From Bdellovibrionota bacterium (lineage in GTDB: Bacteria > Bdellovibrionota > UBA1018 > CAIPTA01 > JAALKR01): a stretch of 64,000 nt of DNA. Every line of letters begins with the position of its first letter. The stretch's first letter is position 1. The position numbers and the translations under genes were made by a program. Shown piece after piece: positions 40,397 through 63,329 of this stretch. The stretch is from the NCBI GenBank assembly GCA_965207455.1, contig CBDBMJ010000003.1, positions 439,973 to 503,972 on the forward strand, read 5' to 3'. The notes under the pieces are model-generated. The model saw only the letters and a program-made list of their open reading frames with translations. It searched no databases and was not told the origin of the DNA.

Positions 40397-40405
40397 TTTG
40401 TTCTC

Positions 40406-40765: not shown

Positions 40766-40789
40766 ATACCTTATCCAGCCTTATCTGCC

Positions 40790-42768: not shown

Positions 42769-43598
42769 AAGAGAAAAAAATGGCACGAACACATTGGTAT
42801 AAAGAAAGAAATTTTTTAATTGGAGGGCCCATTGTGGCTACCCTCTTTATTTTAGCTTTTTTTGCCCCACTGCTCGCTTCCCCAGAATCTCTGCAAGTGT
42901 CCCTAGAGCATAATCTGGCTTCCCCATCCAAAGAGTTTCCCCTCGGTTGCGATATCAATGGACGAAATATTCTATCCATCCTCATATACGGCGCCAGACT
43001 CTCCCTAGAAATTGGAATCCTTTCCACAGCCCTATGTCTGCTCATCGGCTTAATTCTAGGCAGCCTCGCCGGGTATGCAGGAGGCTGGATCGATACAATC
43101 TTGATGCGAATTCTCGATATTGTGTTTGCCTTCCCAGGCATACTCCTAGCCATTGCCATTGCCACTGTTATGGGTGCCAGCAAAACCAATATTATTATCG
43201 CACTTGTAGCAACGGGCTGGGCAGGATATGCCCGGCTTGTTCGAGGAGAAATACGAGCCCTAAAGGAAACAGAGTTTGTGCAGTCTGCAAGAGCATTGGG
43301 TCTTCATCCCGTGCGCATCGTGTTTCGCCACCTATGGCCAAATATCGTATCCCCATTAGCCGTTGCTGCAACATTCGGTGTGGCAGGAACGATTTTAGCC
43401 GAAGCGAGCCTGTCCTTCCTAGGCGTGGGCGTTTCGTCAGACACACCCAGCTGGGGCATACTCATCAACCAAGGAAAAGATTTACTTATAGAAGCACCAC
43501 ATATTGCAACTTTTCCCGGACTCGCTATTATGATCACAATTCTAGGTTTTAACTTCCTCGGCGAAGGGCTAAGGGAAAAACTAGACCCTAAAGGTTAA
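42765..43598 (+). CDS. dppC: Dipeptide/oligopeptide ABC permease (DppC/OppC type)
   Basis: [43 protein letters not shown]. Confidence 0.88.
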   Translation: MKEKKMARTHWYKERNFLIGGPIVATLFILAFFAPLLASPESLQVSLEHNLASPSKEFPLGCDINGRNILSILIYGARLSLEIGILSTALCLLIGLILGSLAGYAGGWIDTILMRILDIVFAFPGILLAIAIATVMGASKTNIIIALVATGWAGYARLVRGEIRALKETEFVQSARALGLHPVRIVFRHLWPNIVSPLAVAATFGVAGTILAEASLSFLGVGVSSDTPSWGILINQGKDLLIEAPHIATFPGLAIMITILGFNFLGEGLREKLDPKG

Positions 43599-43634
43599 GA
43601 CCAAAGGGGGCAATAAAAGGGCAACACTAGTTTT

Positions 43635-45518
43635 TCATTGTTTTTTCAAGCAAAGTCTTTGTGCGGAATCCGAATTAAGAGTTCCACAAGCTTTAGTGAC
43701 TTCAGGTTTTGGTTTATTTTGTAAGCAAACCTCGTGAAGGGAATAACTAAGAGCACCACAAGCTTTAGTAACTTCAGGTTTTGGTTTATTTTGTAAGCAA
43801 ATATTTTGAAAGGAATAACTAAGAGTACCACAAGCTTTAGTAACTTCAGGTTTTGGTTTATTTTGTAAGCAAATCTTTTGAAAGGAATAACCAAGAGTAC
43901 CACAAGCTTTAGTGACTTCAGGTTTTGGTTTATTTTGTAAGCAAATCTTTTGAAAGGAATAACCAAGAGTACCACAAGCTTTAGTGACTTCAGGTTTTGG
44001 TTTATTTTGTAAGCAAATATTTTGAAAGGAATAACTAAGAGTACCACAAGCTTTAGTGACTTCAGGTTTTGGTTTATTTTGTAAGCAAATATTTTGAAAG
44101 GAATAACCAAGAGTACCACAAGCTTTAGTGACTTCAGGTTTTGGTTTATTTTGTAAGCAAATCTTTTGAAAGGAATAACCAAGAGTACCACAAGCTTTAG
44201 TGACTTCAGGTTTTGGTTTATTTTGTAAGCAAATCTTTTGAAAGGAATAACCAAGAGCACCACAAGCGCTAATGACTTCAGGCTTCAGTTGTTTTTGTAA
44301 GCAAAGCTCTTCCAATGAATGAGTAAAAGTACCGCAAGCTTTAGTAACAGCAGGGTCTGACCTTATCGATAGGCAAAGCTTTCCTGTAGAACCCCAACCA
44401 AGAGCATTACAGGCTTTAGTAACTTCTGCCTGATATCGCTCATCTGCTGTGGGTTCGACTGGCTCTTGTTTCGTTTCCATCACGACATCCGGTTGAACCT
44501 GAGGTTGAATAACGGCTCTTATGTTTTTTGAAACATATTTGCCGTTAGATTCCTTTATGCAAATGCCTGTTAAAAATTTTATCTTATCATTAGAAAGCGC
44601 ATTAAGGGTACTAATAATTTCGGTACAGTCAAGGTGAGCTTGAAAGTCATTATTAGCTTCAAAGATAAGGGAAGTCCAAATAATTCTATTAGGCACATCT
44701 TCGTCATCAGAGTATGGAATAACCGCTCGTACATTCGTCAAAATATAATTGTAATGTCTTGCTTCACATTCGTCCGTTAAAAATTTGATATTGTCATTGG
44801 AAAGGTTATCTAGAGCCACACGGGTGCGCTCACATCGATTATAACTAAAAGAGGTATCATTTTGGTCGTTTTCAAAGGAAACACCATTCAGGAGAATGTG
44901 TTCCATATTTTTTGCGCTATTATCATTTTTCTTTGTATTTGTGGCAACTTCTGCTTGAACTCGCTGCTCATCTGCTGTGGGCTCGACTGGCTCTTGTTTC
45001 GTTTCTACCACAACACTCACACCTGCCTGATCTTGCTTTTTTGGTGTAGGTAGTGCAGATGCCAAAACCATTTGCAGTATCTTCTCATCTGATACTTGTT
45101 CTGTTGGATTCTCTTGAGACGCACAATAAAGACTATTGCTTATGCTATTAATGCCTGATTTTCTCTGAGATGAAGAGCTTGCATTATCAGCAAGCGAAGT
45201 AAAGTTAACTGATACTGACGCCAATGATGCTTCATTTACAATACAACTTGCCTTATGAAGAGGTGTACCACCTTCTTTATAAGTAATATCGCAATCACTT
45301 AATTTTGAAATTCCTGGATTTGTCCTGCGATACTTTCTTGAATTATACGCAACTGCTCTTTTTACTCTCTCACCGTCAGCGACCGTATCACTATAGAGTC
45401 TAATAATGTAATCCGTGTCTTTCATTTTGATATCACAAAAATACGTGTTCTTTTCTGCCAGTACTGTGCTTGAACATAGGACTCCCAATCCTATAATTAT
45501 AATATTTTTTATACTCAT
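43635..45518 (-). CDS. Secreted Cys-rich repeat protein A, cassette 1 (627 aa)
   Basis: Signal peptide, GGGGAG RBS, two Cys-containing internal domains, 24-aa repeats KPEVTKACGTLxYSFQxICLQNKP. Confidence 0.8.
   Translation of the reverse strand: MSIKNIIIIGLGVLCSSTVLAEKNTYFCDIKMKDTDYIIRLYSDTVADGERVKRAVAYNSRKYRRTNPGISKLSDCDITYKEGGTPLHKASCIVNEASLASVSVNFTSLADNASSSSQRKSGINSISNSLYCASQENPTEQVSDEKILQMVLASALPTPKKQDQAGVSVVVETKQEPVEPTADEQRVQAEVATNTKKNDNSAKNMEHILLNGVSFENDQNDTSFSYNRCERTRVALDNLSNDNIKFLTDECEARHYNYILTNVRAVIPYSDDEDVPNRIIWTSLIFEANNDFQAHLDCTEIISTLNALSNDKIKFLTGICIKESNGKYVSKNIRAVIQPQVQPDVVMETKQEPVEPTADERYQAEVTKACNALGWGSTGKLCLSIRSDPAVTKACGTFTHSLEELCLQKQLKPEVISACGALGYSFQKICLQNKPKPEVTKACGTLGYSFQKICLQNKPKPEVTKACGTLGYSFQNICLQNKPKPEVTKACGTLSYSFQNICLQNKPKPEVTKACGTLGYSFQKICLQNKPKPEVTKACGTLGYSFQKICLQNKPKPEVTKACGTLSYSFQNICLQNKPKPEVTKACGALSYSLHEVCLQNKPKPEVTKACGTLNSDSAQRLCLKKQ
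43685..44345 (-). repeat. 72-bp coding tandem repeat (about 9 well-conserved units)
   Basis: CACAAGCTTTAGTRACTTCAGGTTTTGGTTTATTTTGTAAGCAAA... recurs with a 72-bp period. Confidence 0.95.
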
Positions 45519-45758
45519 TTACTTCTCCCCTTACACCACAAAAACGTAGCGCAATGCACAGCATAGTGCAGATAACGAATAGCGTCAAGTTTTTTAAATT
45601 ATTTATAATACTCATTTTAATCAGTCAGCGAATAGCTTAGATGACTGTTTTTATCGGAATATGTGAGTCACCCATATACTATTAAAATCTAATAATTTCA
45701 GTAGGTTCACACTCCATTAAACTTTGGAGAAGAGGTATGTGTATTTTTTAAATAATGC

Positions 45759-45787
45759 TTGAAAAATGATGCGCCGCCTTGTATAGT
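45759..45787 (+). promoter_or_regulatory. Sigma70-type promoter of gene B (copy at 50423-50451; homolog at 56537-56565 on minus strand)
   Basis: TTGAAA-17-TATAGT; the paralog has TTGAAA-17-TATATT. Confidence 0.55.
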
Positions 45788-45849
45788 TGCCCTGTTGCTG
45801 CCAGTCTTTTAAGTAAAGCAACAAAAAAAGAGCAAAGGAGCTTACTACT

Positions 45850-47283
45850 ATGAAGAAAATAATATACCTGTATTTCTGTTACGCAATTTTTCTGCCTCAC
45901 ATGGCATCTGCTACAGACCTGTACCTATTCTTTATTCACGGCGATGCTGAATATAAACATCGCAGTTGTGAGAATGGAGAAACCCGGTGTAAAAAAAAGA
46001 GGCGAATAGACGCTAGCAAAACTGTTTTCTATAAAGCAAAAAAACTTTCTGAATCTTGTGATAACTGTGATGTGGTTATCTTTTATATAAAGCCCGGCAA
46101 AAAGAAAGTAAAAGTCTCTCCCCTGAGGGAGTCCTACTCTTCAAATATTTTTGCAAATGCTCCAGCTCTTTCTAGAAAAGATGAGATAAAGCTTGATGTG
46201 AAAACTACCATCTTCTTTTCAGAGGATGGAGAAGATATAATAGGTCAAACTACAGAAAAAACTAATTTTAAGGAAGTTAGTCGCTCCGGTCGGCTTCTTC
46301 TCTATTCGGATGGTTCTCTTCTAAACGAAGAATCAATAGTTCTATCTGGAACAATTCCACCGTTCATTCCCATAATTAGTGGCTTAGCGTGGCTTATGAG
46401 ACAACCTGAGAGTTTTTCTGAAGAGCTAAAATTTTTAGCTGAAAGTACATCTTCACGAGGAAAAAATTATAAAAAGCAATTTGCTTTTTACTTTGGTCAT
46501 AAAATTCCAGATGAAAATAGCCCCGGATTTTTTAAAAGCAATGAAGATGTGGAATTTTCTATCGTTGCTTTTTTAGATCTTGCTAAAAAGGTTTCCAATA
46601 CAATGAATCGAAGAAACAGACGCCCATTTGACGCTTTTTTCTTCCTTAATTGTGCTACTAGTGTAAACACAGTTTATGAGACATATAAAAAAAATGTTAC
46701 AAACTTACTGGTGGCACATCCCGCACTGGTGCCGCTAATAAGTATAACTTCGTGGGATTTTCTTTCTTTAAGAGAGCACCTTTCTAGTAATAATAAAACT
46801 CACGAGAGTATCAAGGCTTTTTTAGAGAAATCTTTTTCTCCTGAAGAGGAGGGTGAAAGAGAAAGCCTTGTTCCTGTTTTACGATCAGATTATTTGCTTT
46901 CTCTTTATGATTTAAAACGGATCAAAAATAGTGTATCCATGGAAAAAGCGCTGAAGAAGGGAGCAAAAATATCAAAAGTCGTTAGCGAAGAAATAGGAGA
47001 CAAAATAAAAAAATGGGCTGCTGGTGTTGCTGCGCTTGACGGTGAGTCTGTGAGTATCGAAAGTGCGATAGCGAGTTTAGCGGACACCTCTTGGAAGGAC
47101 ATTGATTGTCGTCACTATTCAAAAATGCGGCCTATTCTTGAGAAACTAAAGCCTGCTGTACTAGCTAAGTATAGCTTTAAATACGGTTCTGCTTTGAGGC
47201 GCGCCTTTAAATCAAAAGAAGAAAAGTCATCCATATCAGAAGAAGAAAAAGTAGCAAATTTTTCTGGATGGGCCTGTTTCTAA
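45850..47283 (+). CDS. Secreted protein B, putative clan-CD-like (His/Cys) peptidase, cassette 1
   Basis: AAGGAG RBS, signal peptide. FYFGHKIP and FDAFFFLNCA are conserved in the diverged paralog at 55116-56498. Function is inferred. Confidence 0.6.
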   Translation: MKKIIYLYFCYAIFLPHMASATDLYLFFIHGDAEYKHRSCENGETRCKKKRRIDASKTVFYKAKKLSESCDNCDVVIFYIKPGKKKVKVSPLRESYSSNIFANAPALSRKDEIKLDVKTTIFFSEDGEDIIGQTTEKTNFKEVSRSGRLLLYSDGSLLNEESIVLSGTIPPFIPIISGLAWLMRQPESFSEELKFLAESTSSRGKNYKKQFAFYFGHKIPDENSPGFFKSNEDVEFSIVAFLDLAKKVSNTMNRRNRRPFDAFFFLNCATSVNTVYETYKKNVTNLLVAHPALVPLISITSWDFLSLREHLSSNNKTHESIKAFLEKSFSPEEEGERESLVPVLRSDYLLSLYDLKRIKNSVSMEKALKKGAKISKVVSEEIGDKIKKWAAGVAALDGESVSIESAIASLADTSWKDIDCRHYSKMRPILEKLKPAVLAKYSFKYGSALRRAFKSKEEKSSISEEEKVANFSGWACF

Positions 47284-47629: not shown

Positions 47630-47989
47630 ATGAGAAATATAATTATAACAACGCTAGTAATTTTACTAGGCATGCAAACACCTCTATCCGCATCTGCAGC
47701 TGTATCTACAAAAGCACCTGCAACTATGGAGGAGATACATACTGGGGCAGACCTAGCTAATCTGTTTGAACAGAGTGAGAAAGCCTTGGCTTTTGTCACT
47801 ACTGCAACTGGAAAAAGTGGGGAAGAGGTTATTGCACTAGCAAACGCCATGACCCCTGAAGATGTTGAGGAGTTCAAAGACAGTGCTGCTCAAGAGCAAG
47901 AGGTGGCTATTTTCGGGTTAGCAATTGGTCTCGGATTGACTGTTGCTTATCTTGCTGTTATCGTCGCATTTATTTCGTGGGTTCTGTAG
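47630..47989 (+). CDS. Small protein C with signal peptide and C-terminal TM (PA2779-like), cassette 1
   Basis: AAGGAG RBS, signal peptide, LANAMTPEDV helix, hydrophobic C-terminus. Confidence 0.7.
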   Translation: MRNIIITTLVILLGMQTPLSASAAVSTKAPATMEEIHTGADLANLFEQSEKALAFVTTATGKSGEEVIALANAMTPEDVEEFKDSAAQEQEVAIFGLAIGLGLTVAYLAVIVAFISWVL

Positions 47990-48014
47990 AAAAATATTCT
48001 ATACAATAATGTTA

Positions 48015-48062
48015 TAAAAAAGCACTTGAGAGAATTCATCTTTTGAGTGCTTTTTTATTTTT
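48015..48062 (+). terminator. Intrinsic terminator at the cassette end (copies at ~52679 and ~62678)
   Basis: AAAAAAGCACTT...GAGTGCTTTTTT hairpin followed by a T-tract. Confidence 0.8.
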
Positions 48063-48226
48063 GAGCATTAAGATTCCTTATGGAAGCGCCACATATTGCA
48101 ACTTTTCCCGGACTCGCTATTATGATCACAATTCTAGGTTTTAACTTCCTCGGCGAAGGGCTAAGGGAAAAACTAGACCCTAAAGGTTAAGACCAAAGGG
48201 GGCAATAAAAGGGCAACACTAGTTTT

Positions 48227-50182
48227 TCATTGTTTTTTCAAGCAAAGTCTTTGTGCGGAATCCGAATTAAGAGTTCCACAAGCTTTAGTGACTTCAGGTT
48301 TTGGTTTATTTTGTAAGCAAACCTCGTGAAGGGAATAACTAAGAGCACCACAAGCTTTAGTAACTTCAGGTTTTGGTTTATTTTGTAAGCAAATATTTTG
48401 AAAGGAATAACTAAGAGTACCACAAGCTTTAGTAACTTCAGGTTTTGGTTTATTTTGTAAGCAAATATTTTGAAAGGAATAACTAAGAGTACCACAAGCT
48501 TTAGTAACTTCAGGTTTTGGTTTATTTTGTAAGCAAATATTTTGAAAGGAATAACTAAGAGTACCACAAGCTTTAGTAACTTCAGGTTTTGGTTTATTTT
48601 GTAAGCAAATCTTTTGAAAGGAATAACCAAGAGTACCACAAGCTTTAGTGACTTCAGGTTTTGGTTTATTTTGTAAGCAAATCTTTTGAAAGGAATAACC
48701 AAGAGTACCACAAGCTTTAGTGACTTCAGGTTTTGGTTTATTTTGTAAGCAAATATTTTGAAAGGAATAACTAAGAGTACCACAAGCTTTAGTGACTTCA
48801 GGTTTTGGTTTATTTTGTAAGCAAATATTTTGAAAGGAATAACCAAGAGTACCACAAGCTTTAGTGACTTCAGGTTTTGGTTTATTTTGTAAGCAAATCT
48901 TTTGAAAGGAATAACCAAGAGCACCACAAGCGCTAATGACTTCAGGCTTCAGTTGTTTTTGTAAGCAAAGCTCTTCCAATGAATGAGTAAAAGTACCGCA
49001 AGCTTTAGTAACAGCAGGGTCTGACCTTATCGATAGGCAAAGCTTTCCTGTAGAACCCCAACCAAGAGCATTACAGGCTTTAGTAACTTCTGCCTGATAT
49101 CGCTCATCTGCTGTGGGTTCGACTGGCTCTTGTTTCGTTTCCATCACGACATCCGGTTGAACCTGAGGTTGAATAACGGCTCTTATGTTTTTTGAAACAT
49201 ATTTGCCGTTAGATTCCTTTATGCAAATGCCTGTTAAAAATTTTATCTTATCATTAGAAAGCGCATTAAGGGTACTAATAATTTCGGTACAGTCAAGGTG
49301 AGCTTGAAAGTCATTATTAGCTTCAAAGATAAGGGAAGTCCAAATAATTCTATTAGGCACATCTTCGTCATCAGAGTATGGAATAACCGCTCGTACATTC
49401 GTCAAAATATAATTGTAATGTCTTGCTTCACATTCGTCCGTTAAAAATTTGATATTGTCATTGGAAAGGTTATCTAGAGCCACACGGGTGCGCTCACATC
49501 GATTATAACTAAAAGAGGTATCATTTTGGTCGTTTTCAAAGGAAACACCATTCAGGAGAATGTGTTCCATATTTTTTGCGCTATTATCATTTTTCTTTGT
49601 ATTTGTGGCAACTTCTGCTTGAACTCGCTGCTCATCTGCTGTGGGATCGACTGGCTCTTGTTTCGTTTCTAGCACAACACTCACACCTGCCTGATCTTGC
49701 TTTTTTGGTGTAGGTAGTGCAGATGCCAAAACCATTTGCAGTATCTTCTCATCTGATACTTGTTCTGTTGGATTCTCTTGAGACGCACAATAAAGACTAT
49801 TGCTTATGCTATTAATGCCTGATTTTCTCTGAGATGAAGAGCTTGCATTATCAGCAAGCGAAGTAAAGTTAACTGATACTGACGCCAATGATGCTTCATT
49901 TACAATACAACTTGCCTTATGAAGAGGTGTACCACCTTCTTTATAAGTAATATCGCAATCACTTAATTTTGAAATTCCTGGATTTGTCCTGCGATACTTT
50001 CTTGAATTATACGCAACTGCTCTTTTTACTCTCTCACCGTCAGCGACCGTATCACTATAGAGTCTAATAATGTAATCCGTGTCTTTCATTTTGATATCAC
50101 AAAAATACGTGTTCTTTTCTGCCAGTACTGTGCTTGAACATAGGACTCCCAATCCTATAATTATAATATTTTTTATACTCAT
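48227..50182 (-). CDS. Repeat protein A, cassette 2 (651 aa)
   Basis: Near-identical to 43635-45518, with one net extra repeat and two aa changes in the linker. Confidence 0.8.
   Translation of the reverse strand: MSIKNIIIIGLGVLCSSTVLAEKNTYFCDIKMKDTDYIIRLYSDTVADGERVKRAVAYNSRKYRRTNPGISKLSDCDITYKEGGTPLHKASCIVNEASLASVSVNFTSLADNASSSSQRKSGINSISNSLYCASQENPTEQVSDEKILQMVLASALPTPKKQDQAGVSVVLETKQEPVDPTADEQRVQAEVATNTKKNDNSAKNMEHILLNGVSFENDQNDTSFSYNRCERTRVALDNLSNDNIKFLTDECEARHYNYILTNVRAVIPYSDDEDVPNRIIWTSLIFEANNDFQAHLDCTEIISTLNALSNDKIKFLTGICIKESNGKYVSKNIRAVIQPQVQPDVVMETKQEPVEPTADERYQAEVTKACNALGWGSTGKLCLSIRSDPAVTKACGTFTHSLEELCLQKQLKPEVISACGALGYSFQKICLQNKPKPEVTKACGTLGYSFQNICLQNKPKPEVTKACGTLSYSFQNICLQNKPKPEVTKACGTLGYSFQKICLQNKPKPEVTKACGTLGYSFQKICLQNKPKPEVTKACGTLSYSFQNICLQNKPKPEVTKACGTLSYSFQNICLQNKPKPEVTKACGTLSYSFQNICLQNKPKPEVTKACGALSYSLHEVCLQNKPKPEVTKACGTLNSDSAQRLCLKKQ
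48277..49010 (-). repeat. 72-bp coding tandem repeat (about 10 units)
   Basis: Same unit as in cassette 1. Confidence 0.95.
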
Positions 50183-50513: not shown

Positions 50514-51947
50514 ATGAAGAAAATAATATACCTGTATTTCTGTTACGCAATTTTTCTGCCTCACATGGCATCTGCTACAGACCTGTACCTATTCTTTATT
50601 CACGGCGATGCTGAATATAAACATCGCAGTTGTGAGAATGGAGAAACCCGGTGTAAAAAAAAGAGGCGAATAGACGCTAGCAAAACTGTTTTCTATAAAG
50701 CAAAAAAACTTTCTGAATCTTGTGATAACTGTGATGTGGTTATCTTTTATATAAAGCCCGGCAAAAAGAAAGTAAAAGTCTCTCCCCTGAGGGAGTCCTA
50801 CTCTTCAAATATTTTTGCAAATGCTCCAGCTCTTTCTAGAAAAGATGAGATAAAGCTTGATGTGAAAACTACCATCTTCTTTTCAGAGGATGGAGAAGAT
50901 ATAATAGGTCAAACTACAGAAAAAACTAATTTTAAGGAAGTTAGTCGCTCCGGTCGGCTTCTTCTCTATTCGGATGGTTCTCTTCTAAACGAAGAATCAA
51001 TAGTTCTATCTGGAACAATTCCACCGTTCATTCCCATAATTAGTGGCTTAGCGTGGCTTATGAGACAACCTGAGAGTTTTTCTGAAGAGCTAAAATTTTT
51101 AGCTGAAAGTACATCTTCACGAGGAAAAAATTATAAAAAGCAATTTGCTTTTTACTTTGGTCATAAAATTCCAGATGAAAATAGCCCCGGATTTTTTAAA
51201 AGCAATGAAGATGTGGAATTTTCTATCGTTGCTTTTTTAGATCTTGCTAAAAAGGTTTCCAATACAATGAATCGAAGAAACAGACGCCCATTTGACGCTT
51301 TTTTCTTCCTTAATTGTGCTACTAGTGTAAACACAGTTTATGAGACATATAAAAAAAATGTTACAAACTTACTGGTGGCACATCCCGCACTGGTGCCGCT
51401 AATAAGTATAACTTCGTGGGATTTTCTTTCTTTAAGAGAGCACCTTTCTAGTAATAATAAAACTCACGAGAGTATCAAGGCTTTTTTAGAGAAATCTTTT
51501 TCTCCTGAAGAGGAGGGTGAAAGAGAAAGCCTTGTTCCTGTTTTACGATCAGATTATTTGCTTTCTCTTTATGATTTAAAACGGATCAAAAATAGTGTAT
51601 CCATGGAAAAAGCGCTGAAGAAGGGAGCAAAAATATCAAAAGTCGTTAGCGAAGAAATAGGAGACAAAATAAAAAAATGGGCTGCTGGTGTTGCTGCGCT
51701 TGACGGTGAGTCTGTGAGTATCGAAAGTGCGATAGCGAGTTTAGCGGACACCTCTTGGAAGGACATTGATTGTCGTCACTATTCAAAAATGCGGCCTATT
51801 CTTGAGAAACTAAAGCCTGCTGTACTAGCTAAGTATAGCTTTAAATACGGTTCTGCTTTGAGGCGCGCCTTTAAATCAAAAGAAGAAAAGTCATCCATAT
51901 CAGAAGAAGAAAAAGTAGCAAATTTTTCTGGATGGGCCTGTTTCTAA
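50514..51947 (+). CDS. Protein B, cassette 2 (same protein as cassette 1)
   Basis: Translation identical to 45850-47283. Confidence 0.6.
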   Translation: MKKIIYLYFCYAIFLPHMASATDLYLFFIHGDAEYKHRSCENGETRCKKKRRIDASKTVFYKAKKLSESCDNCDVVIFYIKPGKKKVKVSPLRESYSSNIFANAPALSRKDEIKLDVKTTIFFSEDGEDIIGQTTEKTNFKEVSRSGRLLLYSDGSLLNEESIVLSGTIPPFIPIISGLAWLMRQPESFSEELKFLAESTSSRGKNYKKQFAFYFGHKIPDENSPGFFKSNEDVEFSIVAFLDLAKKVSNTMNRRNRRPFDAFFFLNCATSVNTVYETYKKNVTNLLVAHPALVPLISITSWDFLSLREHLSSNNKTHESIKAFLEKSFSPEEEGERESLVPVLRSDYLLSLYDLKRIKNSVSMEKALKKGAKISKVVSEEIGDKIKKWAAGVAALDGESVSIESAIASLADTSWKDIDCRHYSKMRPILEKLKPAVLAKYSFKYGSALRRAFKSKEEKSSISEEEKVANFSGWACF

Positions 51948-52653: not shown

Positions 52654-52890
52654 AAAAATATTCTATACAATAATGTTATAAAAAAGCACTTGAGAGAATT
52701 CATCTTTTGAGTGCTTTTTTATTTTTGAGCATTAAGATTCCTTATGGAAGCGCCACATATTGCAACTTTTCCCGGACTCGCTATTATGATCACAATTCTA
52801 GGTTTTAACTTCCTCGGCGAAGGGCTAAGGGAAAAACTAGACCCTAAAGGTTAAGACCAAAGGGGGCAATAAAAGGGCAACACTAGTTTT

Positions 52891-54870
52891 TCATTGTTTT
52901 TTCAAGCAAAGTCTTTGTGCGGAATCCGAATTAAGAGTTCCACAAGCTTTAGTGACTTCAGGTTTTGGTTTATTTTGTAAGCAAACCTCGTGAAGGGAAT
53001 AACTAAGAGCACCACAAGCTTTAGTAACTTCAGGTTTTGGTTTATTTTGTAAGCAAATATTTTGAAAGGAATAACTAAGAGTACCACAAGCTTTAGTAAC
53101 TTCAGGTTTTGGTTTATTTTGTAAGCAAATATTTTGAAAGGAATAACTAAGAGTACCACAAGCTTTAGTAACTTCAGGTTTTGGTTTATTTTGTAAGCAA
53201 ATATTTTGAAAGGAATAACTAAGAGTACCACAAGCTTTAGTAACTTCAGGTTTTGGTTTATTTTGTAAGCAAATCTTTTGAAAGGAATAACCAAGAGTAC
53301 CACAAGCTTTAGTGACTTCAGGTTTTGGTTTATTTTGTAAGCAAATCTTTTGAAAGGAATAACCAAGAGTACCACAAGCTTTAGTGACTTCAGGTTTTGG
53401 TTTATTTTGTAAGCAAATATTTTGAAAGGAATAACTAAGAGTACCACAAGCTTTAGTGACTTCAGGTTTTGGTTTATTTTGTAAGCAAATATTTTGAAAG
53501 GAATAACCAAGAGTACCACAAGCTTTAGTGACTTCAGGTTTTGGTTTATTTTGTAAGCAAATCTTTTGAAAGGAATAACCAAGAGCACCACAAGCGCTAA
53601 TGACTTCAGGCTTCAGTTGTTTTTGTAAGCAAAGCTCTTCCAATGAATGAGTAAAAGTACCGCAAGCTTTAGTAACAGCAGGGTCTGACCTTATCGATAG
53701 GCAAAGCTTTCCTGTAGAACCCCAACCAAGAGCATTACAGGCTTTAGTAACTTCTGCCTGATATCGCTCATCTGCTGTGGGTTCGACTGGCTCTTGTTTC
53801 GTTTCCATCACGACATCCGGTTGAACCTGAGGTTGAATAACGGCTCTTATGTTTTTTGAAACATATTTGCCGTTAGATTCCTTTATGCAAATGCCTGTTA
53901 AAAATTTTATCTTATCATTAGAAAGCGCATTAAGGGTACTAATAATTTCGGTACAGTCAAGGTGAGCTTGAAAGTCATTATTAGCTTCAAAGATAAGGGA
54001 AGTCCAAATAATTCTATTAGGCACATCTTCGTCATCAGAGTATGGAATAACCGCTCGTACATTCGTCAAAATATAATTGTAATGTCTTGCTTCACATTCG
54101 TCCGTTAAAAATTTGATATTGTCATTGGAAAGGTTATCTAGAGCCACACGGGTGCGCTCACATCGATTATAACTAAAAGAGGTATCATTTTGGTCGTTTT
54201 CAAAGGAAACACCATTCAGGAGAATGTGTTCCATATTTTTTGCGCTATTATCATTTTTCTTTGTATTTGTGGCAACTTCTGCTTGAACTCGCTGCTCATC
54301 TGTTGCATTGATGATGTTAAAGCTTAATTTTGTCAATAGACAAGCTTCTTGTAAATTAGGCTTACTATCATAGCGCTTACAAAATTTGATGCTTTCTATC
54401 TTAGCTGCCTCCGTCTGCACCAGATGATCGAGCATTTGCAATATTTTTTTATTCGATATTTTTTTTCTTGGATTTCTGTAATATGCACAACGATATGATT
54501 CGTCAATATCTGATGGATTCTGAGATAAAGTATTTACATTATCGGGAAACACATTAAAATCGACTATTAATGATACCTTATTCACAGTACAGCCTATTTC
54601 AACAAGATTCGGGTCATTATTTCTATGGGTAACATGGCAATTATCAGATTTTAAAATTTTTGAATCTCTCCTGCCAAATCCATATTGCCAAATGTTATAC
54701 GCGACTACTTTTTTTACTTCCTCACGGCCAGCAACATTATGCCCATAGAGCCTAATAGCGTGACTGTTATCTGTTTTGATATCACAAAAATATGTTTTAT
54801 TTTTCGCTAATGCTACATTTGAACATAAGGCTGCTAAACCAAATCCTATAATTATATTTTTTATGCTCAT
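52891..54870 (-). CDS. Repeat protein A', cassette 3, with a swapped N-terminal domain (659 aa)
   Basis: Identical to cassette 2 from DEQRVQAEV to the C-terminus; N-terminal ~190 aa are diverged. Confidence 0.8.
   Translation of the reverse strand: MSIKNIIIGFGLAALCSNVALAKNKTYFCDIKTDNSHAIRLYGHNVAGREEVKKVVAYNIWQYGFGRRDSKILKSDNCHVTHRNNDPNLVEIGCTVNKVSLIVDFNVFPDNVNTLSQNPSDIDESYRCAYYRNPRKKISNKKILQMLDHLVQTEAAKIESIKFCKRYDSKPNLQEACLLTKLSFNIINATDEQRVQAEVATNTKKNDNSAKNMEHILLNGVSFENDQNDTSFSYNRCERTRVALDNLSNDNIKFLTDECEARHYNYILTNVRAVIPYSDDEDVPNRIIWTSLIFEANNDFQAHLDCTEIISTLNALSNDKIKFLTGICIKESNGKYVSKNIRAVIQPQVQPDVVMETKQEPVEPTADERYQAEVTKACNALGWGSTGKLCLSIRSDPAVTKACGTFTHSLEELCLQKQLKPEVISACGALGYSFQKICLQNKPKPEVTKACGTLGYSFQNICLQNKPKPEVTKACGTLSYSFQNICLQNKPKPEVTKACGTLGYSFQKICLQNKPKPEVTKACGTLGYSFQKICLQNKPKPEVTKACGTLSYSFQNICLQNKPKPEVTKACGTLSYSFQNICLQNKPKPEVTKACGTLSYSFQNICLQNKPKPEVTKACGALSYSLHEVCLQNKPKPEVTKACGTLNSDSAQRLCLKKQ
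52941..53670 (-). repeat. 72-bp coding tandem repeat (about 10 units)
   Basis: Same unit order as cassette 2. Confidence 0.95.
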
Positions 54871-55115
54871 CTATTCCTTCCTTACAAAGTCACATATTGG
54901 AATTATATTATAAATGAAATAATGCGGCATGTCAACATTTTTCTTGAGTTTTAATCAATACAATACATACGATATAGAGCCAAATTAAGTCTATGAGAGC
55001 CTCTCATGCTCTCTAGGGCCCGCTTGATGCAAAAAATCTATGCTATATAATATGCTTGATATTGTTGTGCGGAGTTATTGATTCTGTTATCTAGAGGGTT
55101 AGAGCAGAAATGTTT

Positions 55116-56498
55116 TTAGAGACAACTCCAGCCAGAAAAATCTACTGTCTTTCCATCCCTTGGTTTGAAGGATAGCTTCCAAGTAGCTGGAGCTTTAAAA
55201 TAATGTTTATATCGTAAAGAGGGCGCGAGCTTCTCAAGAATAGGATGAATTTCCGGGTAAAGAGCACAATCAACGTTTTTCCAAGATTCATCTCTTAAAT
55301 GCTTTAGCTCAACTCCACCACTAGATTTATCATTAGCAATACCAGAAGCCCACTTTTTTATATCTTCTCCTATTTTTTTGCCAATTCGCTTTGATATTTT
55401 TGCACCCTCTTCTAAAGCTTTTTCTAGTGATCTTTCGTTTTTGATCTGATCTAGATCATAAAGGGAAACAGCATAACTTGTGTGCAAGATGTAAGAAAGG
55501 CTTTCTTTTTTGTGCTGATCTTCCGGAGAAAAAGAATTATTGAAGAAAGTCTTAATGCTTTCGTGAGTTTCATTATTGCTAGAAAGATGTTCTCCTAAAG
55601 AAAGAAGATCCCATGAGGCCATAGTTCCCAATGCCACAAATGGTGGGTGAGCTAGCAATAAACTTGTAATATCTTTTTTATAAATTTCATAAACTGTGCT
55701 CATACCAGTAGCACAATTAAGAAGAAAAAGAGCATCAAACAGGCGATTTTTCCCATTACTGACTTTAGAAAATTCTTTTGCAAAAGTTAAAAAAGCATTC
55801 ATAGAGAACTCAGCAACTTCATTACTATGAAAAAATCCAGTATGAGTATCATCTGGAATTTTATGACCAAAGTAAAAAGCGAACTGCTTATTATAATTCC
55901 TACCTTGGGAAAATGCATTTTTATCTAAAATTTTCAACTCACGAGAAAATTCCTCAGGACCTCTTGTTATCCATGCTAAGTTGCCAATTACAGGTACAAA
56001 CCTCGGGATCTTTTTAGATATAACTATCGGTGTTTTTTCTAAAAGAGCTCCATTTGAATAGAAAAGCATTTGGCCGGAATGGATGGCTTCCTCAGAACCA
56101 AATCGAGTTGTATTTTGAGCCATTATATGCTTTTTATCTTTTGAAACGAAGATAGTAGTTTGGACCAAACTAAGCGTACCACCTGTTTTTTTAGAAGAAA
56201 ATGAAAAAGAGCCTGTCTCTTCAGAAGAGATTTTTACTTTCTCACTATAGGGTTTTACATAAAAAATAGCCACATCACAGTCACTACAGGATTCAGAAAG
56301 TTCTTTTGCTTTATTGAATATAGTGTTGCTAGAGTCTAGCAATGGGTTCTTTTCTTTACAATGGGTTGCCCCATTCTCACAGCCGCGATAGTGATATTTA
56401 GCATCACCATGAATAAAGAATAGATATAGGTCTGTAGCAGATGCTACTTGAGATAGAAAAATAGCGTAACCAAAATACAGATATATTAATTTTTTCAT
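55116..56498 (-). CDS. Protein B', diverged paralog of B in inverted orientation, cassette 3
   Basis: Shares ATDLYLFFIHGDA, FYFGHKIPD, FDxxFxLNCAT and a C-terminal FSGWxC with B. Confidence 0.7.
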   Translation of the reverse strand: MKKLIYLYFGYAIFLSQVASATDLYLFFIHGDAKYHYRGCENGATHCKEKNPLLDSSNTIFNKAKELSESCSDCDVAIFYVKPYSEKVKISSEETGSFSFSSKKTGGTLSLVQTTIFVSKDKKHIMAQNTTRFGSEEAIHSGQMLFYSNGALLEKTPIVISKKIPRFVPVIGNLAWITRGPEEFSRELKILDKNAFSQGRNYNKQFAFYFGHKIPDDTHTGFFHSNEVAEFSMNAFLTFAKEFSKVSNGKNRLFDALFLLNCATGMSTVYEIYKKDITSLLLAHPPFVALGTMASWDLLSLGEHLSSNNETHESIKTFFNNSFSPEDQHKKESLSYILHTSYAVSLYDLDQIKNERSLEKALEEGAKISKRIGKKIGEDIKKWASGIANDKSSGGVELKHLRDESWKNVDCALYPEIHPILEKLAPSLRYKHYFKAPATWKLSFKPRDGKTVDFSGWSCL

Positions 56499-56895
56499 AA
56501 TCTTGACCTCTTTAGTTCCTCTCTTCTCTCACAGGCAATATACATTGCATTGCGTTATTTTTCAAGCTTTATTTAAAAAAAATCATCCGAATTGACTCAC
56601 AAAAAACGTCAGCAAAATGGCTTTGAGAACAGTAAGTTAGGGGGGGTTGATTCTGGGGTTGTTGTATAATTGCCTGAAAACTTATTATATTGCACTTGAG
56701 GGAAGCTGAAATCTTTCAATTCAAAAATATGGGTAGTACAGGGTATTTATGCAACAGTGTCCGTGATCCCTCGCATAAACTCTGCCACTATAACTAAGTA
56801 GCATCAAGCGTATATGCACAGAGTTAATTCTTAAGTTGTTAATAATAAAGAAGATTCCTCGCCATGGTGCTATGACCACAAAATACCGTTGGATT

Positions 56896-57502
56896 TCACC
56901 ATGCTGCATTCCGCATATTCGCAAATCGGGCTAGTTTTGATGGAAGGTTCGCTATCTTGCACGCCTTTTTCATTTTGCCCGGAAGAAGTTGCTGCAACTT
57001 CTGCTGCTCCTTCAACTCTTGATGGACCAGCTTAATATCGATTTCAGCAAAACGTTCTGCCAAATCCTTTTTTCCATTCAAAATAATTTCCATGTATTGA
57101 GGATTCTCCAAGTTTTTAACTAAGGGGGTGCCAACAAGCATCGCCTTTAAGGTTTTGCTCAAAGATTTGTTCCCTCCCTTTTTTCTATAACCTCTTTTTA
57201 AGTGTCTAAAAAATCTCTCCAAAACATTATTTGTTCGTTGAGGCCATATCTTAACCATGCCTGTTGGAGTACGAACAGTGATGGGATCAGCGAATAGTTT
57301 CTCCCAATATTTATCAATCTGCTTAATCATCTTTTTATATGCAGTATCAGTTGAAGCAAGTTCCTTTATTTTTTTGGAATTACGAAACTTGGTAACTTCT
57401 TCTTTGATGGTTTTCATGTCAGCATTTTTGTTTCCGTCATCATTCAGTCCTTTTTGGCCATCCGGTAATGCTATTCTCATTGCCTCTCTTAACTGATCAA
57501 AA
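56896..57502 (-). pseudogene. C-terminal part of the interrupted transposase
   Basis: PQRTNNVLERFFR (candidate catalytic E). Rejoins in frame (KVFD-QLREAMRIAL) when IS66 and one TSD copy are removed. Confidence 0.85.
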
Positions 57503-57602
57503 GTAAGCGGTCGGTGAACGGCAGGCTTTGAGATAAGGCAATTCTGTGCTATAGTATTTGCCCCATTCTATAGGTCAGTCAGTTTCATTTGGCAGAGATT
57601 TT

Positions 57603-59226
57603 TCAGCAGTCCACATTGGCTGCTGCATAGTCGGCTGGACTTATTCTTGTTGGCAGGAGCTTTTCAAAGTCTTCTACCGTATTCCCTTTGGGTATTTCTT
57701 GTAAGATGTATCGAAAATAAGCAAACGGCTCATGTCCATTAGCCGTAGCCGTTGCCATAATACTGTAAATTATTGCTGATGCGTTGGCTCCCTTAACAGA
57801 TTGTGAAAATAACCAATTTTTTCTACCAATAGCAAACGGGCGTATCTTATTCTCAACGAATTGGTTGCTGATATTTAAATTCCCATCCCTTATATACACT
57901 TTTAGATATTTCCATTCATTTAAAGCATAACTAATAGCTTTGCCGAGTGGGCTTTCAGGAGCAACGGTTATTCGAGTTTTCTCTAACCATTCATGGAAGC
58001 TGTCTAGTATCATCTTAGATTTTTCTTGCCTTATTTTATATTTTTCCTCTGCACCTAGCTTAGACTCCCTCATATATTTTTCTAATTTATACAGCTTTTC
58101 AATATAGCTTAGAGCTTTTCCTGTTTTACCCTGCTTTTTAGTGATTTTATGTGCTTCAAAGAACTTCCTTCTTGCATGATCCCAGCACCCCAAGCGAATT
58201 ATTTCCGGATTCTCTCGGCATAATGCATTGTAACCACGATAGGCATCTGTCTGCAGGTATCCTTTAAAACCAGGCAATAGTTTCTTTGGAACATCTCCAC
58301 TTCTCGTAGGGTCATATTCATAGAGGATAATTGGTTTAACACCATCTCTTCCTCTTACCCACATGTAGGATTTTGACTCTGCTTTTTTTCCTGGCTCTGA
58401 TAAAACCTGCAATGGAGTCTCATCCATTTGCACATACTTGCTAGATAATAACTCATCTTGCAATAGATTAAATAAAGGCATCATTAAATCGGCACTTTTT
58501 ATCATCCAATCACTCATCATACCTCTAGATATATCTACTCCAGCGTTCACAAACATGCCTTCCATACGATACAGGGGAATATGATTGCAATATTTATTTA
58601 CTATTATTTGCGCAAGAAGCCCTGGACCTGCAATCGACTTAGGAATTGGCATAGGATTAGACGCTATCTTTGATTTTCCACATTTTTTGCACTTATATTG
58701 TTTTCTTATAATTTTGATCGCCTTTATAATTTGTGGCAAAGCATCCATATATTCTGATACTTTATCTCCATTTTCTTTCATAATAACACGGCAATCTGAG
58801 CAGACTCTTTCCTTCTCTGAAAGTGCAATCTTCTTAGGCTCTCGAGGAATATTTGCTGGTATGGGCTTGCGCTTGGGTTTAGATTTGGAGCTGTTCTGCC
58901 CAACTAGATCCTCTCTTCTTTTTTCTACTGCTTGTTCATCAGAATCGCAACTTTCCTCTGGCTTTTCCTCATTAAAAAGAGGATCTTGTTCGTGGCATTC
59001 TCCATGCTTCTGCTTTTTCCTTTTCTCTGTAGATTGACCAAATAATTCTTCACTTAACAATCTAATTCTTTCGCCTTGGCGTAATATTCTTGTTTCGGCA
59101 GATATTAGTTTCTGATTTAATTTATTTTTTTCTTCTCTTAATTTAGTTATTGATGTATTTGCAGAAATGAGTTTTTTTATTTAATTGCAAGGCAAGCTTT
59201 TTGATACTGGCGATATCTTTAGGCAT
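57603..59226 (-). CDS. tnpC: IS66 transposase TnpC, with a 1-nt frameshift in an A7 tract near 59172-59178
   Basis: Zn-finger CSDC/CKKC, QMDETP, LQTDAY, CWDHARRKF, ENKIRPFAIGRKNWLF. ATG 59226 is out of frame by one base. Confidence 0.85.
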
Positions 59227-59286
59227 GTTATTCTTATCAATAAGCATAAAAATATAATAACAAGCAATTTCCTATCTCTCAATACT

Positions 59287-59640
59287 TTATTGAGAATAAC
59301 TTAATTTTTTATGTGGCTTATACTCCCAAAAATTATAACCATCTAACAACAAACGAAGCTTTTCTTCATCTATTTCAAATACAGCCTGATCTTTATCCTT
59401 TGGTAAAAAAAACCTTTCTTTCTCCAAGCGCTTATACCAAAGAGCAAATCCTGAACGATCCCAATATAAAATTTTTATGCGACTCTTGTTTCGATTCACA
59501 AATACGAACAGAAATGAACCAAATGGATCCATCTCCATCTCATCTGCCACTATCTGACTCAAACCATTAATGCTTTTACGAAAATCTACAATCTCTCGGT
59601 ATAAATAGATATTTGAAAATTGACTCAAATCAATCATCAT
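59287..59640 (-). CDS. tnpB: IS66 accessory protein TnpB
   Basis: VDFRKSINGL, KILYWDRSGFALWYKRLEKERF. Confidence 0.92.
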   Translation of the reverse strand: MMIDLSQFSNIYLYREIVDFRKSINGLSQIVADEMEMDPFGSFLFVFVNRNKSRIKILYWDRSGFALWYKRLEKERFFLPKDKDQAVFEIDEEKLRLLLDGYNFWEYKPHKKLSYSQ

Positions 59641-59948
59641 TTACCTCTGAACCAATCAATTGGAGGTAACTTTTTGAGCTTTATGCGTACTCCACAGGGC
59701 AAAAATATTTCTATGAAGTCATTTTCATTGTTTATGGACCTAAGCTCCATAAATCTATTTTTCTTTATTTTCTGAGCAAAATTTTTTCTCTTCCAGTAAG
59801 ATAGCGCTGGCGCACTTAATTTGTTCTGTCTGCAATACTCAGCTGCTATCAATCCGCTTGTTTTCTGCTCTTCGATTTTCTTTCGCCAATAGCTCTCTTT
59901 CAGACCTTTATTTGGCTTTTCTGTTTCCTTTTCTTTCATGAGCGGCAT
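59637..59948 (-). CDS. tnpA: IS66 TnpA (HTH)
   Basis: W..SGL..AEYCRQ..LSYWKRK and IEIFLPCG motifs. Confidence 0.85.
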   Translation of the reverse strand: MPLMKEKETEKPNKGLKESYWRKKIEEQKTSGLIAAEYCRQNKLSAPALSYWKRKNFAQKIKKNRFMELRSINNENDFIEIFLPCGVRIKLKKLPPIDWFRGK

Positions 59949-59997
59949 TATAACAGAATTTCTCTAGATCAGAGACTGCCGATCACCGACCGCTTAC

Positions 59998-61204
59998 GAT
60001 CAAAAACCTTTATCTTCTCCTGCATTTTTGTAAAAATCCGTTTGAGATCGCGATCATTAACCACTTCAGAAAGAGTTGTTGTTAAAGACTCAAGCTTTTT
60101 TTTTAGATCTCTTCCTGATTCTAGATTCTGAATTATCCTATAAACCTCCTTTAATCGTACATAGAAAACAAGATGAGCACGATCGAAAGGAAACCCGAAT
60201 CCTTTTAACTCACTATTCGATTCAAGAGCCCAAATAACGAGAATGTAAACCATCACTTCAGGGAGCAATTTAATATCAGGCAGATCGAGTTGGTTGCTTT
60301 CAAGATATGAGTTAAAACAACTTATTAAAGCAGGGTCATCATCAATCATTTTTTTCAATTTCTTTTTTGTTTCTCTTAACTTGGCACGTACTCTATATCC
60401 CTTAAGACTTTTAAGAAGCATGCTGTATTCATACCCAAATAAATCTTTGCCGATATCTCGGGCGAAGTGATAGTGGCAAATAAAATCTAGAACACCAGGG
60501 AAAACTTCTTTGACCGATTTTAAAATACCCACTCCCATATCATGAACCAAGGCTAGGGGGTTGCCATACAACTTCTTGATCTCTTTCAGGAATGGAATAA
60601 TTTGGTCTTTGTTTTTAGAAGGAAGTTTAATATTGCTCAAAACAATTTCAGAAAGTCCATCAATTGCGCTCATCAAGTGAGGACTGTCCCCTTCACATGT
60701 AGCATCCAAGTGAATTATGCATCCGCCATTTTTATTCATTAAATTTTTCAACTTGCTATGAGAATCTTTGTGAATCAATGCCAAATAAACAATAAATCTT
60801 TTTCCCAAATGACTAATTTCGCTGATTGAGATGGTGATATTTTGTTTAAGCAATTCACCCTTGATTTGCTCTTCTCCTTTAGAGTGAAAAAATAATGCCA
60901 TTCCAATTTCAACGATTACATCAAATCCAAAATTACCATTTGTAGGAACAAGATTTTTAAGTTCACTGGAACGATAAGTTATAGCGCATGGAGCACAATG
61001 CATATGCCATTCCCGTGCATTAAATTCACCAACGGCCAAAGTTACCACTCTTTTTCTGTCACTTTTCTTTATTTTAAGCTTGCCTCCACATTGGCAATAG
61101 GATTCAACTGGATAAAAATCTACTGTTGGGATTTCAGGAAAAAGTCTCTTAGGAGAGAACGCTGATTTTAGTTCATCCAATAGAGCTTTTAAAACAACAA
61201 TCAC
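59998..61204 (-). pseudogene. N-terminal part of the interrupted DDE transposase
   Basis: Cys motifs, IHLDAT (D1), VHDMG (D2), CHYH motif; truncated by IS66. Confidence 0.82.
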
Positions 61205-61869
61205 TTCATATGCAGTTTTTTTTTAATCTCATAGAATTCTAAAACTTTCTTTACTTGATTAAATGAAATCTTTTTTCCTCTCGAGCTAAGTCTGAAGGCT
61301 ATCTTCAAAGGTGCTGCTTCTACTGAACTTTCTTTGATAACTTCAGTTAATACTTCAATCGCCATCCATGTTGGGATGTTTTCAGAAGGAAGGTTAATCT
61401 CTAACTTTTGTCTTTTTCTTGTCGCATCGATTTGAAGCTTTGATATAGATAATTTATTACTAACGTAAAGATAGTTGCCATCAAGGTTAACTCGAGCAAT
61501 TTCTCCAGAGTTGACTAAATTCAACAGCGTACCGTGAACTGGAATTTTAAGGCGATCTTTTAAATCTAAATGCTTCATCCCGTGTTTGGAGCAATTTATA
61601 AAATGGGTAATGGTATCCCTTAAGTTGCCGTGCTTTGAGAAACCTATGTCTTTAAAATGCCAAAGACCGTATGAATCAAAGGTCGGAGTTATTTTGAGAG
61701 TATAGAATTTACCCATATGACTGTAGCTTGAAAAATAATCGACATTCATTAAATCTCTAAACAAGCTAGCACGAGACCGACCATTTAAATTTTTTTGAAG
61801 TGATTTTAGATCCATAACTCGATTTCGTTGCAAAAGATGAATAAGTTTCATTTTAGTATTTTCGGACAT
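61201..61869 (-). CDS. Transposon ORF1 (putative DNA-binding accessory protein), probably fused to the transposase by -1 frameshift
   Basis: Lies inside the TIRs and ends just after an A9 tract, overlapping ORF2. Confidence 0.75.
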   Translation of the reverse strand: MSENTKMKLIHLLQRNRVMDLKSLQKNLNGRSRASLFRDLMNVDYFSSYSHMGKFYTLKITPTFDSYGLWHFKDIGFSKHGNLRDTITHFINCSKHGMKHLDLKDRLKIPVHGTLLNLVNSGEIARVNLDGNYLYVSNKLSISKLQIDATRKRQKLEINLPSENIPTWMAIEVLTEVIKESSVEAAPLKIAFRLSSRGKKISFNQVKKVLEFYEIKKKLHMK

Positions 61870-62268
61870 TTTCCCCCCTTTGATTCATGCTTGAGACTAT
61901 TACAGCACAGGCAATTAGTATTCGCCTTAATAGTCTCGCTATTGCTTAAAAATAGCAAGCCTTTTTTCGACATTTCATGGGGTTACGGAGATAGCGCTTT
62001 GCGCATTTGATGCAGTTATGATTGATCATGGAAAAATAGGTGAATAATTTTAAATAGTTATAAAATCCAACGGTATTTTGTGGTCATAGCCATGGTGTAA
62101 GGATTTGGTTTTGCCCCTACTAATAATATTTCCTGTTGACAGTTTAATGCATCGCTGCTAATGTGCCAAGTCAATGGGGAAAGGGTGCCCTCCCAATAAA
62201 AGTAGTGCCTTTAATGAAAGTAATGAATGATAGATGGTCTATCTTTCAAAAATAAAAAGGAGTAAATA

Positions 62269-62643
62269 ATGAAAAAAATAATCATAACAACACTAGTAAT
62301 TTTACTAGGCATGCAAACATCTCTATCTGCATCTGCAGTTGTGTCGCCAGGGGCAACTACGATAAATCTAGAGACGGACATAAAAACTGGGAAAGATATA
62401 GCTGATCTACTATCCCTAGAAGTGAACAAGGAGCAGTTAGCTAATGCCGCTTCGCAAAATGGGATAACCGAAGAGCAATTTCTCGCTGATCTTGCAGCTC
62501 TAACCCCTGGAGAGGTGGACCAACTGAAATATCGCATTTTTCAGTCAAAGAATATAGCAGTATCAGCTATGGTGGAGGACGCTGTAGTGTTTATAACCAC
62601 GGTTACTCTTGCTGCCGCTCTTTTTATTGTTGTTGTTTTTTAG
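62269..62643 (+). CDS. Protein C', diverged paralog of C, cassette 3
   Basis: Same leader/RBS and signal peptide (IIITTLVILLGMQT.LSASA.VS); different mature region; C-terminal TM. Confidence 0.72.
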   Translation: MKKIIITTLVILLGMQTSLSASAVVSPGATTINLETDIKTGKDIADLLSLEVNKEQLANAASQNGITEEQFLADLAALTPGEVDQLKYRIFQSKNIAVSAMVEDAVVFITTVTLAAALFIVVVF

Positions 62644-62826
62644 CAATTATAAAAAGCACTTTATATAAATAATGTCATAAAAAAGCACTTTAAGAGAGTT
62701 CGATCTTTTGAGTGCTTTTTTATTTTTGAGCATTAAGATTCCTTATGGAAGCGCCACATATTGCAACTTTTCCCGGACTCGCTATTATGATCACAATTCT
62801 AGAGAGCGAACAAAGAAGGAGAACAC

Positions 62827-63303: not shown

Positions 63304-63329
63304 ACGGGTACATATCCCTCCCCCCACGC

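Follow-up and report, generated by a model that had tools for sequence, protein, structure and literature searches.

How does a bacterium come to hold several versions of one exported module side by side behind a housekeeping gene, with no integrase encoded nearby? This question is raised by the dppC-dut locus of a Bdellovibrionota genome assembly (G000; 2.38 Mb in three contigs, C1, C2 and C3; 94.7% complete), which lies in a window of 64 kb forming the last 64 kb of contig C3; coordinates are positions in this window unless a contig is named. Between dppC and dut, a 61-bp piece of dppC occurs four times and delimits three head-to-tail units, each encoding a Cys-repeat protein (A), a putative peptidase (B) and a small protein (C), numbered by unit. 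The assembly does contain this array, and the chromosome probably does too. We consider that RecA-type amplification keeps and varies it, together with an exchange between strains of the middle parts of cassettes; this would require no integrase, and we assign the reading a probability of about 0.6.

Core repeats, hybrid junctions and unit structure

The intact dppC-type ABC permease gene (42765..43598, plus strand; Pfam BPD_transp_1 E 2e-27; 63% identical to its orthologue in G001, the one same-family relative genome compared) is the source of the repeated core, whose four copies start at 43485, 48077, 52741 and 62742, with spacings of 4592, 4664 and 10001 bp. Copy 1 (43485..43545, plus strand) lies inside dppC, has the native sequence and is followed by the last 53 bp of the gene, which the core does not include. 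The three remaining, right-type copies are mutually identical over 100 bp, consisting of 39 bp upstream plus the core, and differ from dppC at two positions, 43490 and 43496, leaving 49 identical bases shared by the outer copies. The core occurs nowhere else in the assembly, and since the next best genome match is only 13 bp long, four copies cannot be attributed to chance.

At the two internal junctions (48077..48190 and 52741..52854, both plus strand), a terminator-like hairpin is followed by a right-type core (48077-48137 and 52741-52801) and then by the 53-bp dppC tail, while the right-hand core (62742..62802, plus strand) lacks this tail and leads directly into the leader of the dUTPase gene dut (62827..63303, plus strand; Pfam dUTPase E 2e-30). 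In having direct repeats on either side of each unit and hybrid sequences at the inner junctions, the array resembles a direct-repeat gene accordion. No hairpin lies behind dppC itself (z 0.5). In G001, a full dppC precedes dut at a distance of 44 bp, providing the empty site that the first-pass annotation had proposed to look for; this adjacency is found in 1 of 10 other genomes of the order, namely G001. The right-hand core also carries a 9-of-12 sigma-70-like match (62761-62788) ahead of dut, but such a match is not above chance (58 sites found against 54.4 expected), and a role of the core as dut promoter is no more than a conjecture. By eye, the bases after the dppC stop (43599-43630) loosely resemble those before the dut start (62808-62826).

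The units measure 4592, 4664 and 4773 bp, the last figure excluding nested insertion sequences (IS), because 5222 bp of the outer IS and 6 bp of its target duplication are subtracted from 10001 bp. Each contains A, B, C and a closing terminator-like hairpin on the plus strand (48014..48058, -22.1 kcal/mol, z -5.4; 52678..52722; 62677..62723, -20.5 kcal/mol, z -4.8), the first of which was not called by a consensus terminator scan. The differences between units 1 and 2 amount to a single 72-bp repeat, seven substitutions within repeats, two core substitutions and three further single-base differences outside both, at 44982, 45008 and 47949. On all these points, namely the fourfold dppC fragment, the unit sizes, the shared gene trio and terminator, the hybrid junctions and the near-identity of the first two units, the first-pass annotation proved accurate. 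It had also described unit 3 as having near-identical ends, a strongly diverged middle and an inverted B. The left end does equal unit 2 over 1565 bp (52741-54305) with one mismatch, nucleotide identity beyond 54305 falls to 63% in the 5' part of A, 69% in B and 62% in C, and B3 is inverted along with its upstream region; at the right end, however, the sequences become identical again only in the 39 bp next to the core (91% over 82 bp), so that this end is less conserved than had been described.

The switch of identity between units 2 and 3 lies at 49641 and 54305, respectively, in a linker that occurs twice in A. Because the switch falls in this linker and identity resumes near the core, the exchanged block comprises the 5' half of A together with B and C, and it is bounded by homology rather than by the core on both sides. 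A1 (627 aa; 43635..45518, minus strand) consists of a signal-peptide-like start, an N-domain, a linker, a two-repeat middle domain, a second linker and nine 24-aa Cys repeats. A2 (651 aa; 48227..50182, minus strand) has ten such repeats, and the two proteins differ in repeat order as well as number, which speaks in favor of exchange. A3 (659 aa; 52891..54870, minus strand) is a chimera, with a 3' part identical to A2 and a diverged 5' part meeting at the 54305 linker.

Further variation is seen in one short-read run, X1, whose contigs and depths were used for the locus and which holds 0.98 of the sequence words of 54300-64000. Three loose ends occur at two A linkers (44406, 44438 and 45041), two of them at a depth of about 19; their letters have no assembly match at up to two mismatches, and the one translated reads as another Cys-repeat start. 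More versions of A therefore exist than the assembly shows, belonging to other cells or to unassembled DNA. The earlier description of a locus of predicted exported proteins that can expand and be exchanged is supported, as is allele variation in a run that contains the locus. Two other runs, X2 and X3, gave no records over 44400-48260.

The same layout at other host genes

A local direct-repeat census of the genome found partial copies within 30 kb for 33 of 1707 open reading frames of at least 150 aa; many of these are cargo paralogs or IS, and 15 of the 33 were scanned in Pfam. Six conserved host genes have their 3' part repeated further downstream, with cargo in between: dppC, lipB (together with fabI in full), a class II tRNA-synthetase-like gene that we take to be epmA, ppdK, a PfkB kinase gene, presumably hldE-like, and an ABC permease gene (together with pilD). 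Their anchors range from 61 to about 1400 bp, and from about 180 to 1400 bp at the five host genes other than dppC.

The lipB/fabI array (C1:28496-36029; L016:3497-11030) has three units on a 1239-bp anchor made of the lipB 3' part and the whole of fabI, a junction with a single shared base, and cargos related to the N-domain of A that are 96% and 56-57% alike. The epmA-like array (C1:1174033-1181523; L032, L056 and L060) likewise has three units, formed by the intact gene, an inner junction with the full 3' part and an outer copy that is a 181-bp piece from inside the gene, without the last 111 bp; it carries three related exported cargos and a DDE transposase and is a structural twin of the dppC array. 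Both arrays hold two near-identical cargos (96-99%) and one distant cargo (56-64%), so that the dppC, fabI and epmA-like arrays all show two like units plus a distant one. Empty sites for the fabI and epmA-like arrays are unproven, because the neighboring genes are not conserved in the one and three relative loci checked, respectively. A junction motif common to all arrays was considered but did not hold up, since the dppC units do not match the two ends that the cargos of the fabI and epmA arrays have in common.

The ppdK array (C3:1207-31970; L033, L057 and L058) is fourfold, with a 1369-bp anchor and four versions of a DUF285/Ig-like surface protein (1193-1563 aa, 81-91% alike) separated by the ppdK 3' half and a DDE transposase. 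Two arrays are twofold: at C1:1818976-1824447 (L035, L054 and L055), the permease 3' part and pilD are duplicated around two cargos, and at C1:1364768-1370642 (L034 and L059), a PfkB 3' piece lies between two versions (67% at the amino-acid level) of a pair of predicted exported proteins of 660-690 aa. A related arrangement is found at a HEAT-repeat gene (C3:124285-126735; L051-L053), where a 133-bp repeat of the 3' end flanks a cytosine methylase gene and a partner gene.

When truncated copies are compared with the intact genes, differences at codon positions 1, 2 and 3 number 15, 6 and 39 (eight fragments, p 5e-7), a bias that suggests that the fragments derive from functional alleles. Additionally, a hairpin-like sequence is shared at 13 places outside the fabI and epmA arrays (e.g., C1:206864, 232662 and 468983; C3:68857 and 212203). 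At 12 of the 13 it stands behind a small gene whose signal-peptide-like start resembles that at the other places, often convergent on a host gene, which suggests that cassettes of one gene each, with the same ends, form a family across the genome. Contig C2 (5588 bp) combines a tyrosine-integrase match with an exported cargo gene bearing the shared hairpin, and it is 74% alike to an element beside tRNA-Leu on contig C1.

Amplification and exchange weighed against the alternatives

Under the favored reading, an A-B-C cassette would first have entered the ancestral dppC-dut gap with the 61-bp dppC piece at its right border, in keeping with the present layout. A crossover within the 49 identical bases of the outer copies would then have produced the hairpin-core-tail junction, and the reverse order, in which the junction formed first and the last unit was deleted later, would fit equally well. 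Once two units were present, homology of 1.5-4.6 kb would let copy number rise and fall. Finally, crossovers in the A linker and in the 100 bp around the core would have exchanged the central block of a unit (the 5' half of A plus all of B and C) between strains, leading to two copies of one version and one deeply different copy. The likely function of such a locus is to hold several versions of a cell-surface or exported module at once, made up of the Cys-repeat protein, the putative C11 peptidase and a small protein predicted to be membrane-anchored. In support, recA, comEC and dprA are present in the genome, which permits the uptake of DNA without demonstrating it.

A broader proposal, which we put forward tentatively, is that the lineage collects alleles genome-wide, so that an exported-protein variant taken up from another strain joins the resident version in a tandem array behind a housekeeping gene and does not displace it; the duplicated host-gene pieces would then provide the anchors for recombination, and swapping would take place in linkers, hairpins and leader regions that the versions share. 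If this were true, a single chromosome would keep a usable stock of surface variants, spread over at least six loci, and would do so with no recombinase dedicated to it.

Each step of the amplification and exchange reading has precedents. In Helicobacter pylori, the CHA-ud direct repeat is, according to the accessible parts of PMC5358911 and PMC6672019, needed and sufficient for multi-cagA arrays, whose copy number changes through this 462-bp repeat and whose gene copies do not differ from one another. The two systems share an exported-protein gene between direct repeats, a tandem array and no integrase; they differ in that the present repeat is a 61-bp host-gene piece, the unit has three genes and the copies are not identical, one unit being only 44-53% alike in B and C. 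For the lpl cluster of Staphylococcus aureus nuSa-alpha, what is available of PMC2568036 describes a conserved stretch inside the open reading frame as the likely crossover site, an exchange unit that spans gene borders, and a model of unequal crossing-over, re-integration of circles and transfer between strains. A stretch inside A similarly joins different 5' and 3' parts, with the A2/A3 switch and the X1 loose ends both located at A linkers, whereas lpl, as presented there, is one gene family on an island with an integrase remnant, in contrast to a three-gene unit, a host-gene fragment and arrays at many host genes.

Insertion with long target duplication, defined for restriction-modification genes (PMC2853133, available portions), involves an insert without mobility genes and a host-gene repeat of more than 30 bp, and its units can amplify. 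The 61-bp repeat and the insert of 19.2 kb in all (below 20 kb) fit this description; the cargo consists of A, B and C and not of restriction and modification genes, and a single crossover does not restore the empty site, because the right core lacks the native dppC tail and dppC would lose its last 53 bp. By comparison with the same portions, the methylase pair at the HEAT-repeat gene fits the layout directly. Streptococcus pneumoniae merodiploids formed by transformation are, in the accessible text of PMC3784515, laboratory tandem duplications of more than 100 kb with IS repeats; a hybrid repeat at the junction and the holding of two alleles are features in common, and competence of the present organism is only presumed. 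Homology-facilitated stacking is also described for type VI secretion system modules in the available part of PMC5361080. The mechanism is thus known in parts, from multi-cagA arrays, lpl clusters and merodiploids, and the observed feature is explained by known processes.

Because of this, the dppC-dut locus on its own is of modest interest, and it is the recurrence at several unrelated host genes in one small genome that raises its significance. No report of such arrays in this phylum was found in the literature covered, which left out most subscription papers and supplements. If confirmed, the locus would offer a compact natural system for studying how a bacterium keeps deeply different surface-module versions together.

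Several observations weigh against this interpretation. A stretch of 49 identical bases is short for a RecA-type crossover. That the exchanged blocks came from other strains is something we infer, and the comparison included no conspecific genome. The presence of comEC and dprA says little, because 10 of 14 control genomes likewise have both above the cut-off. The census covers this genome alone. The third-position signal comes mostly from one fragment, the truncated ABC permease (3/0/22); the dppC fragment contributes only 0/0/3, the PfkB fragment (7/4/7) shows no bias, two of the eight fragments have no differences, and the bias could equally reflect change in the intact gene. Furthermore, the dppC-dut array ends 1.2 kb from one end of contig C3 and the ppdK array begins 1.2 kb from the opposite end; run X1 may be the source sample of the assembly; its contigs cannot bridge the 49-bp core, and its summed depths are compatible both with three units in tandem and with a mixture of strains carrying one unit each.

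The last points lead to the rival that survives best, although we regard it as unlikely: that the assembly concatenated single-unit alleles from different cells, each chromosome carrying fewer than three units, or one, between dppC and dut. The position close to a contig end and the A variants in X1 absent from the assembly are compatible with this, and if the 49-bp core contig is left uncounted, the depth on the dppC side is 45-68, about equal to the junction depth of 54.5. With the core contig counted, however, the dppC side falls to at most 18 against 54.5, which corresponds to at least three units, and the listed X1 depths of 13.5, 23-25 and 43 stand as 1:2:3. The 1.87-Mb contig suggests that long reads were used, which a 61-bp repeat should not mislead, and the arrays in mid-contig and the homology-free fabI junction require real junction molecules.

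A second rival, clearly improbable, holds that the units are decayed integrative elements with attachment (att) sites in dppC, comparable to cis-mobilizable elements (CIMEs), which accreted in tandem through an integrase acting in trans. In CIME accretion, as described in the available part of PMC5704250, integrase-less tandem units with chimeric internal sites form at the 3' region of a gene. The junctions here do look like attI (element end, core and gene tail), the core differences cluster at its 5' end, and its size is near that of att repeats (8-60 bp in that part of PMC5704250). The genome also has nine PF00589 matches and one serine recombinase, all on other contigs, and paralogs of the A middle domain lie next to two of these. 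The att repeats of that source, however, include the gene end and have a cognate integrase; the right core stops 53 bp before the dppC stop, the repeat has no further occurrence in the genome, and no PF00589 or PF07508 recombinase match exists on contig C3, in agreement with the integrase-free status first proposed. Dyads with arms of at least 5 bp are absent from the core. Inside gene A, the units have 1.5 kb in common, and the switch lies there as well; the sister arrays use anchors of up to 1.4 kb or a homology-free junction. The first-pass annotation had left open att-like cassettes mobilized in trans; a core without the gene end and with no second genomic site, a switch inside A, and the recurrence of the layout at unrelated host genes, whose anchors are far too long and too variable to be att sites, speak against this option. 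Short host-gene repeats around cassettes, accordingly, need not be att sites.

Least probable is descent within one lineage, by an old tandem duplication, slow divergence, an IS-driven inversion of B3 and recent gene conversion of the ends with no exchange between strains: a third B-C pair after htpG (42-46% and 38% at the amino-acid level) shows the genome to contain old paralogs, B3 has repeated short elements on both sides, unit 3 contains two IS and DDE transposases adjoin the junctions in the ppdK and epmA arrays, but the htpG pair differs too much from both versions to have been the donor of either, and the X1 variants of A and the third-position bias point to an allele pool.

The encoded proteins and nested elements

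The call of B as a peptidase, made at first from the sequence, is upheld by fold comparison. B1 (477 aa; 45850..47283, plus strand) is a predicted exported clostripain-like (C11, clan CD) cysteine peptidase with His217 and Cys268; B2 (50514..51947, plus strand) is identical to it as a protein, and B3 (460 aa; 55116..56498, minus strand) is 53% identical. In an alignment of 24 sequences, Cys268 is invariant and His217 is conserved in at least 90%, in the order His then Cys. An Atlas feature search returned C11 clusters at 0.90, with low recognition value, and the best PDB sequence match was the C11 protease 6mzo (E 0.049), with the Cys motif aligned. The structural model (predicted local distance difference test, pLDDT, 81.6) gave Foldseek matches at E <= 0.001 of which 7 of 7 are C11 proteases. 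The fold and the order of the conserved residues are those of family C11 (PDB 6n9j, 6mzo, 6nag and 9cip), whereas identity is only 8-12%, the TM-score by query length is 0.30-0.38, and neither B1 nor B3 matches the Pfam C11 family at E <= 0.1. B is consequently regarded as a putative clostripain-like (C11) cysteine peptidase on the basis of its modeled fold and His/Cys dyad.

No B homolog was found in the 10 other genomes of the order, and among 400 other genomes of the phylum there is one strong match (G179), with two more at E about 5e-4; a metagenome scan confirmed none of 65 pattern matches. The G179 match has no A- or C-like neighbor by eye, and the linkage of B with C is therefore known only inside this genome, at four places and in three versions. 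The pair after htpG (C1:670744-674848; L017:6745-10849) is split by a transposase-like insert and has no A.

C1 (119 aa; 47630..47989, plus strand) has a signal-peptide-like start and a hydrophobic C-terminus; C2 (52294..52653, plus strand) differs from it by one residue, and C3 (124 aa; 62269..62643, plus strand) is 44% identical over 98 aa. Matches to the PA2779 family NF033919 extend over nearly the full length (C1, 16.5 bits, E 0.007; C3, 17 bits) and lie below the cut-off of 40, and the htpG copy of C gave no such match, so C resembles this family weakly. Export of A, B and C is predicted from signal-peptide-like N-termini read by eye.

A has no Pfam or NCBIfam family above cut-off and no Atlas match, its repeat part has no shorter relative among 8000 candidates, and its only relative by alignment is a paralog in its own genome. 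In the comparison of the core and of A, B and C with the genome and its relatives, suggested at the outset, the core proved to be confined to this locus, A was found in none of 126 other genomes of the class, and B and C recur together after htpG. Separate genes for the N-domain of A exist in the fabI array; the middle domain is encoded on its own at four places, of which three adjoin recombinase genes. A is a modular Cys-repeat protein present in this genome only, among the genomes searched. The locus thereby adds a divergent, putative C11 peptidase branch and a modular Cys-repeat family found so far only in this genome.

In unit 3, the outer IS (56869..62090, minus strand; 5222 bp) has 28-bp inverted repeats and the 6-bp target duplication CATGGT, with weak profile matches of IS256/ISKra4 type only. 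Its transposase is interrupted by a nested IS66 (57503..59997, minus strand) with the 8-bp duplication GATCAAAA, of which a second copy, 99% identical, lies on contig C1. To the left of B3 is a short element (54974..55018) that also occurs upstream of a repeated transposase-like gene elsewhere, and to its right are multi-copy short elements (56587..56756) located elsewhere mostly beside transposase-like genes. Upstream of dppB, genes labeled by eye as FHA-domain and Tad-like (37804-41680) appear in the same order in G001.

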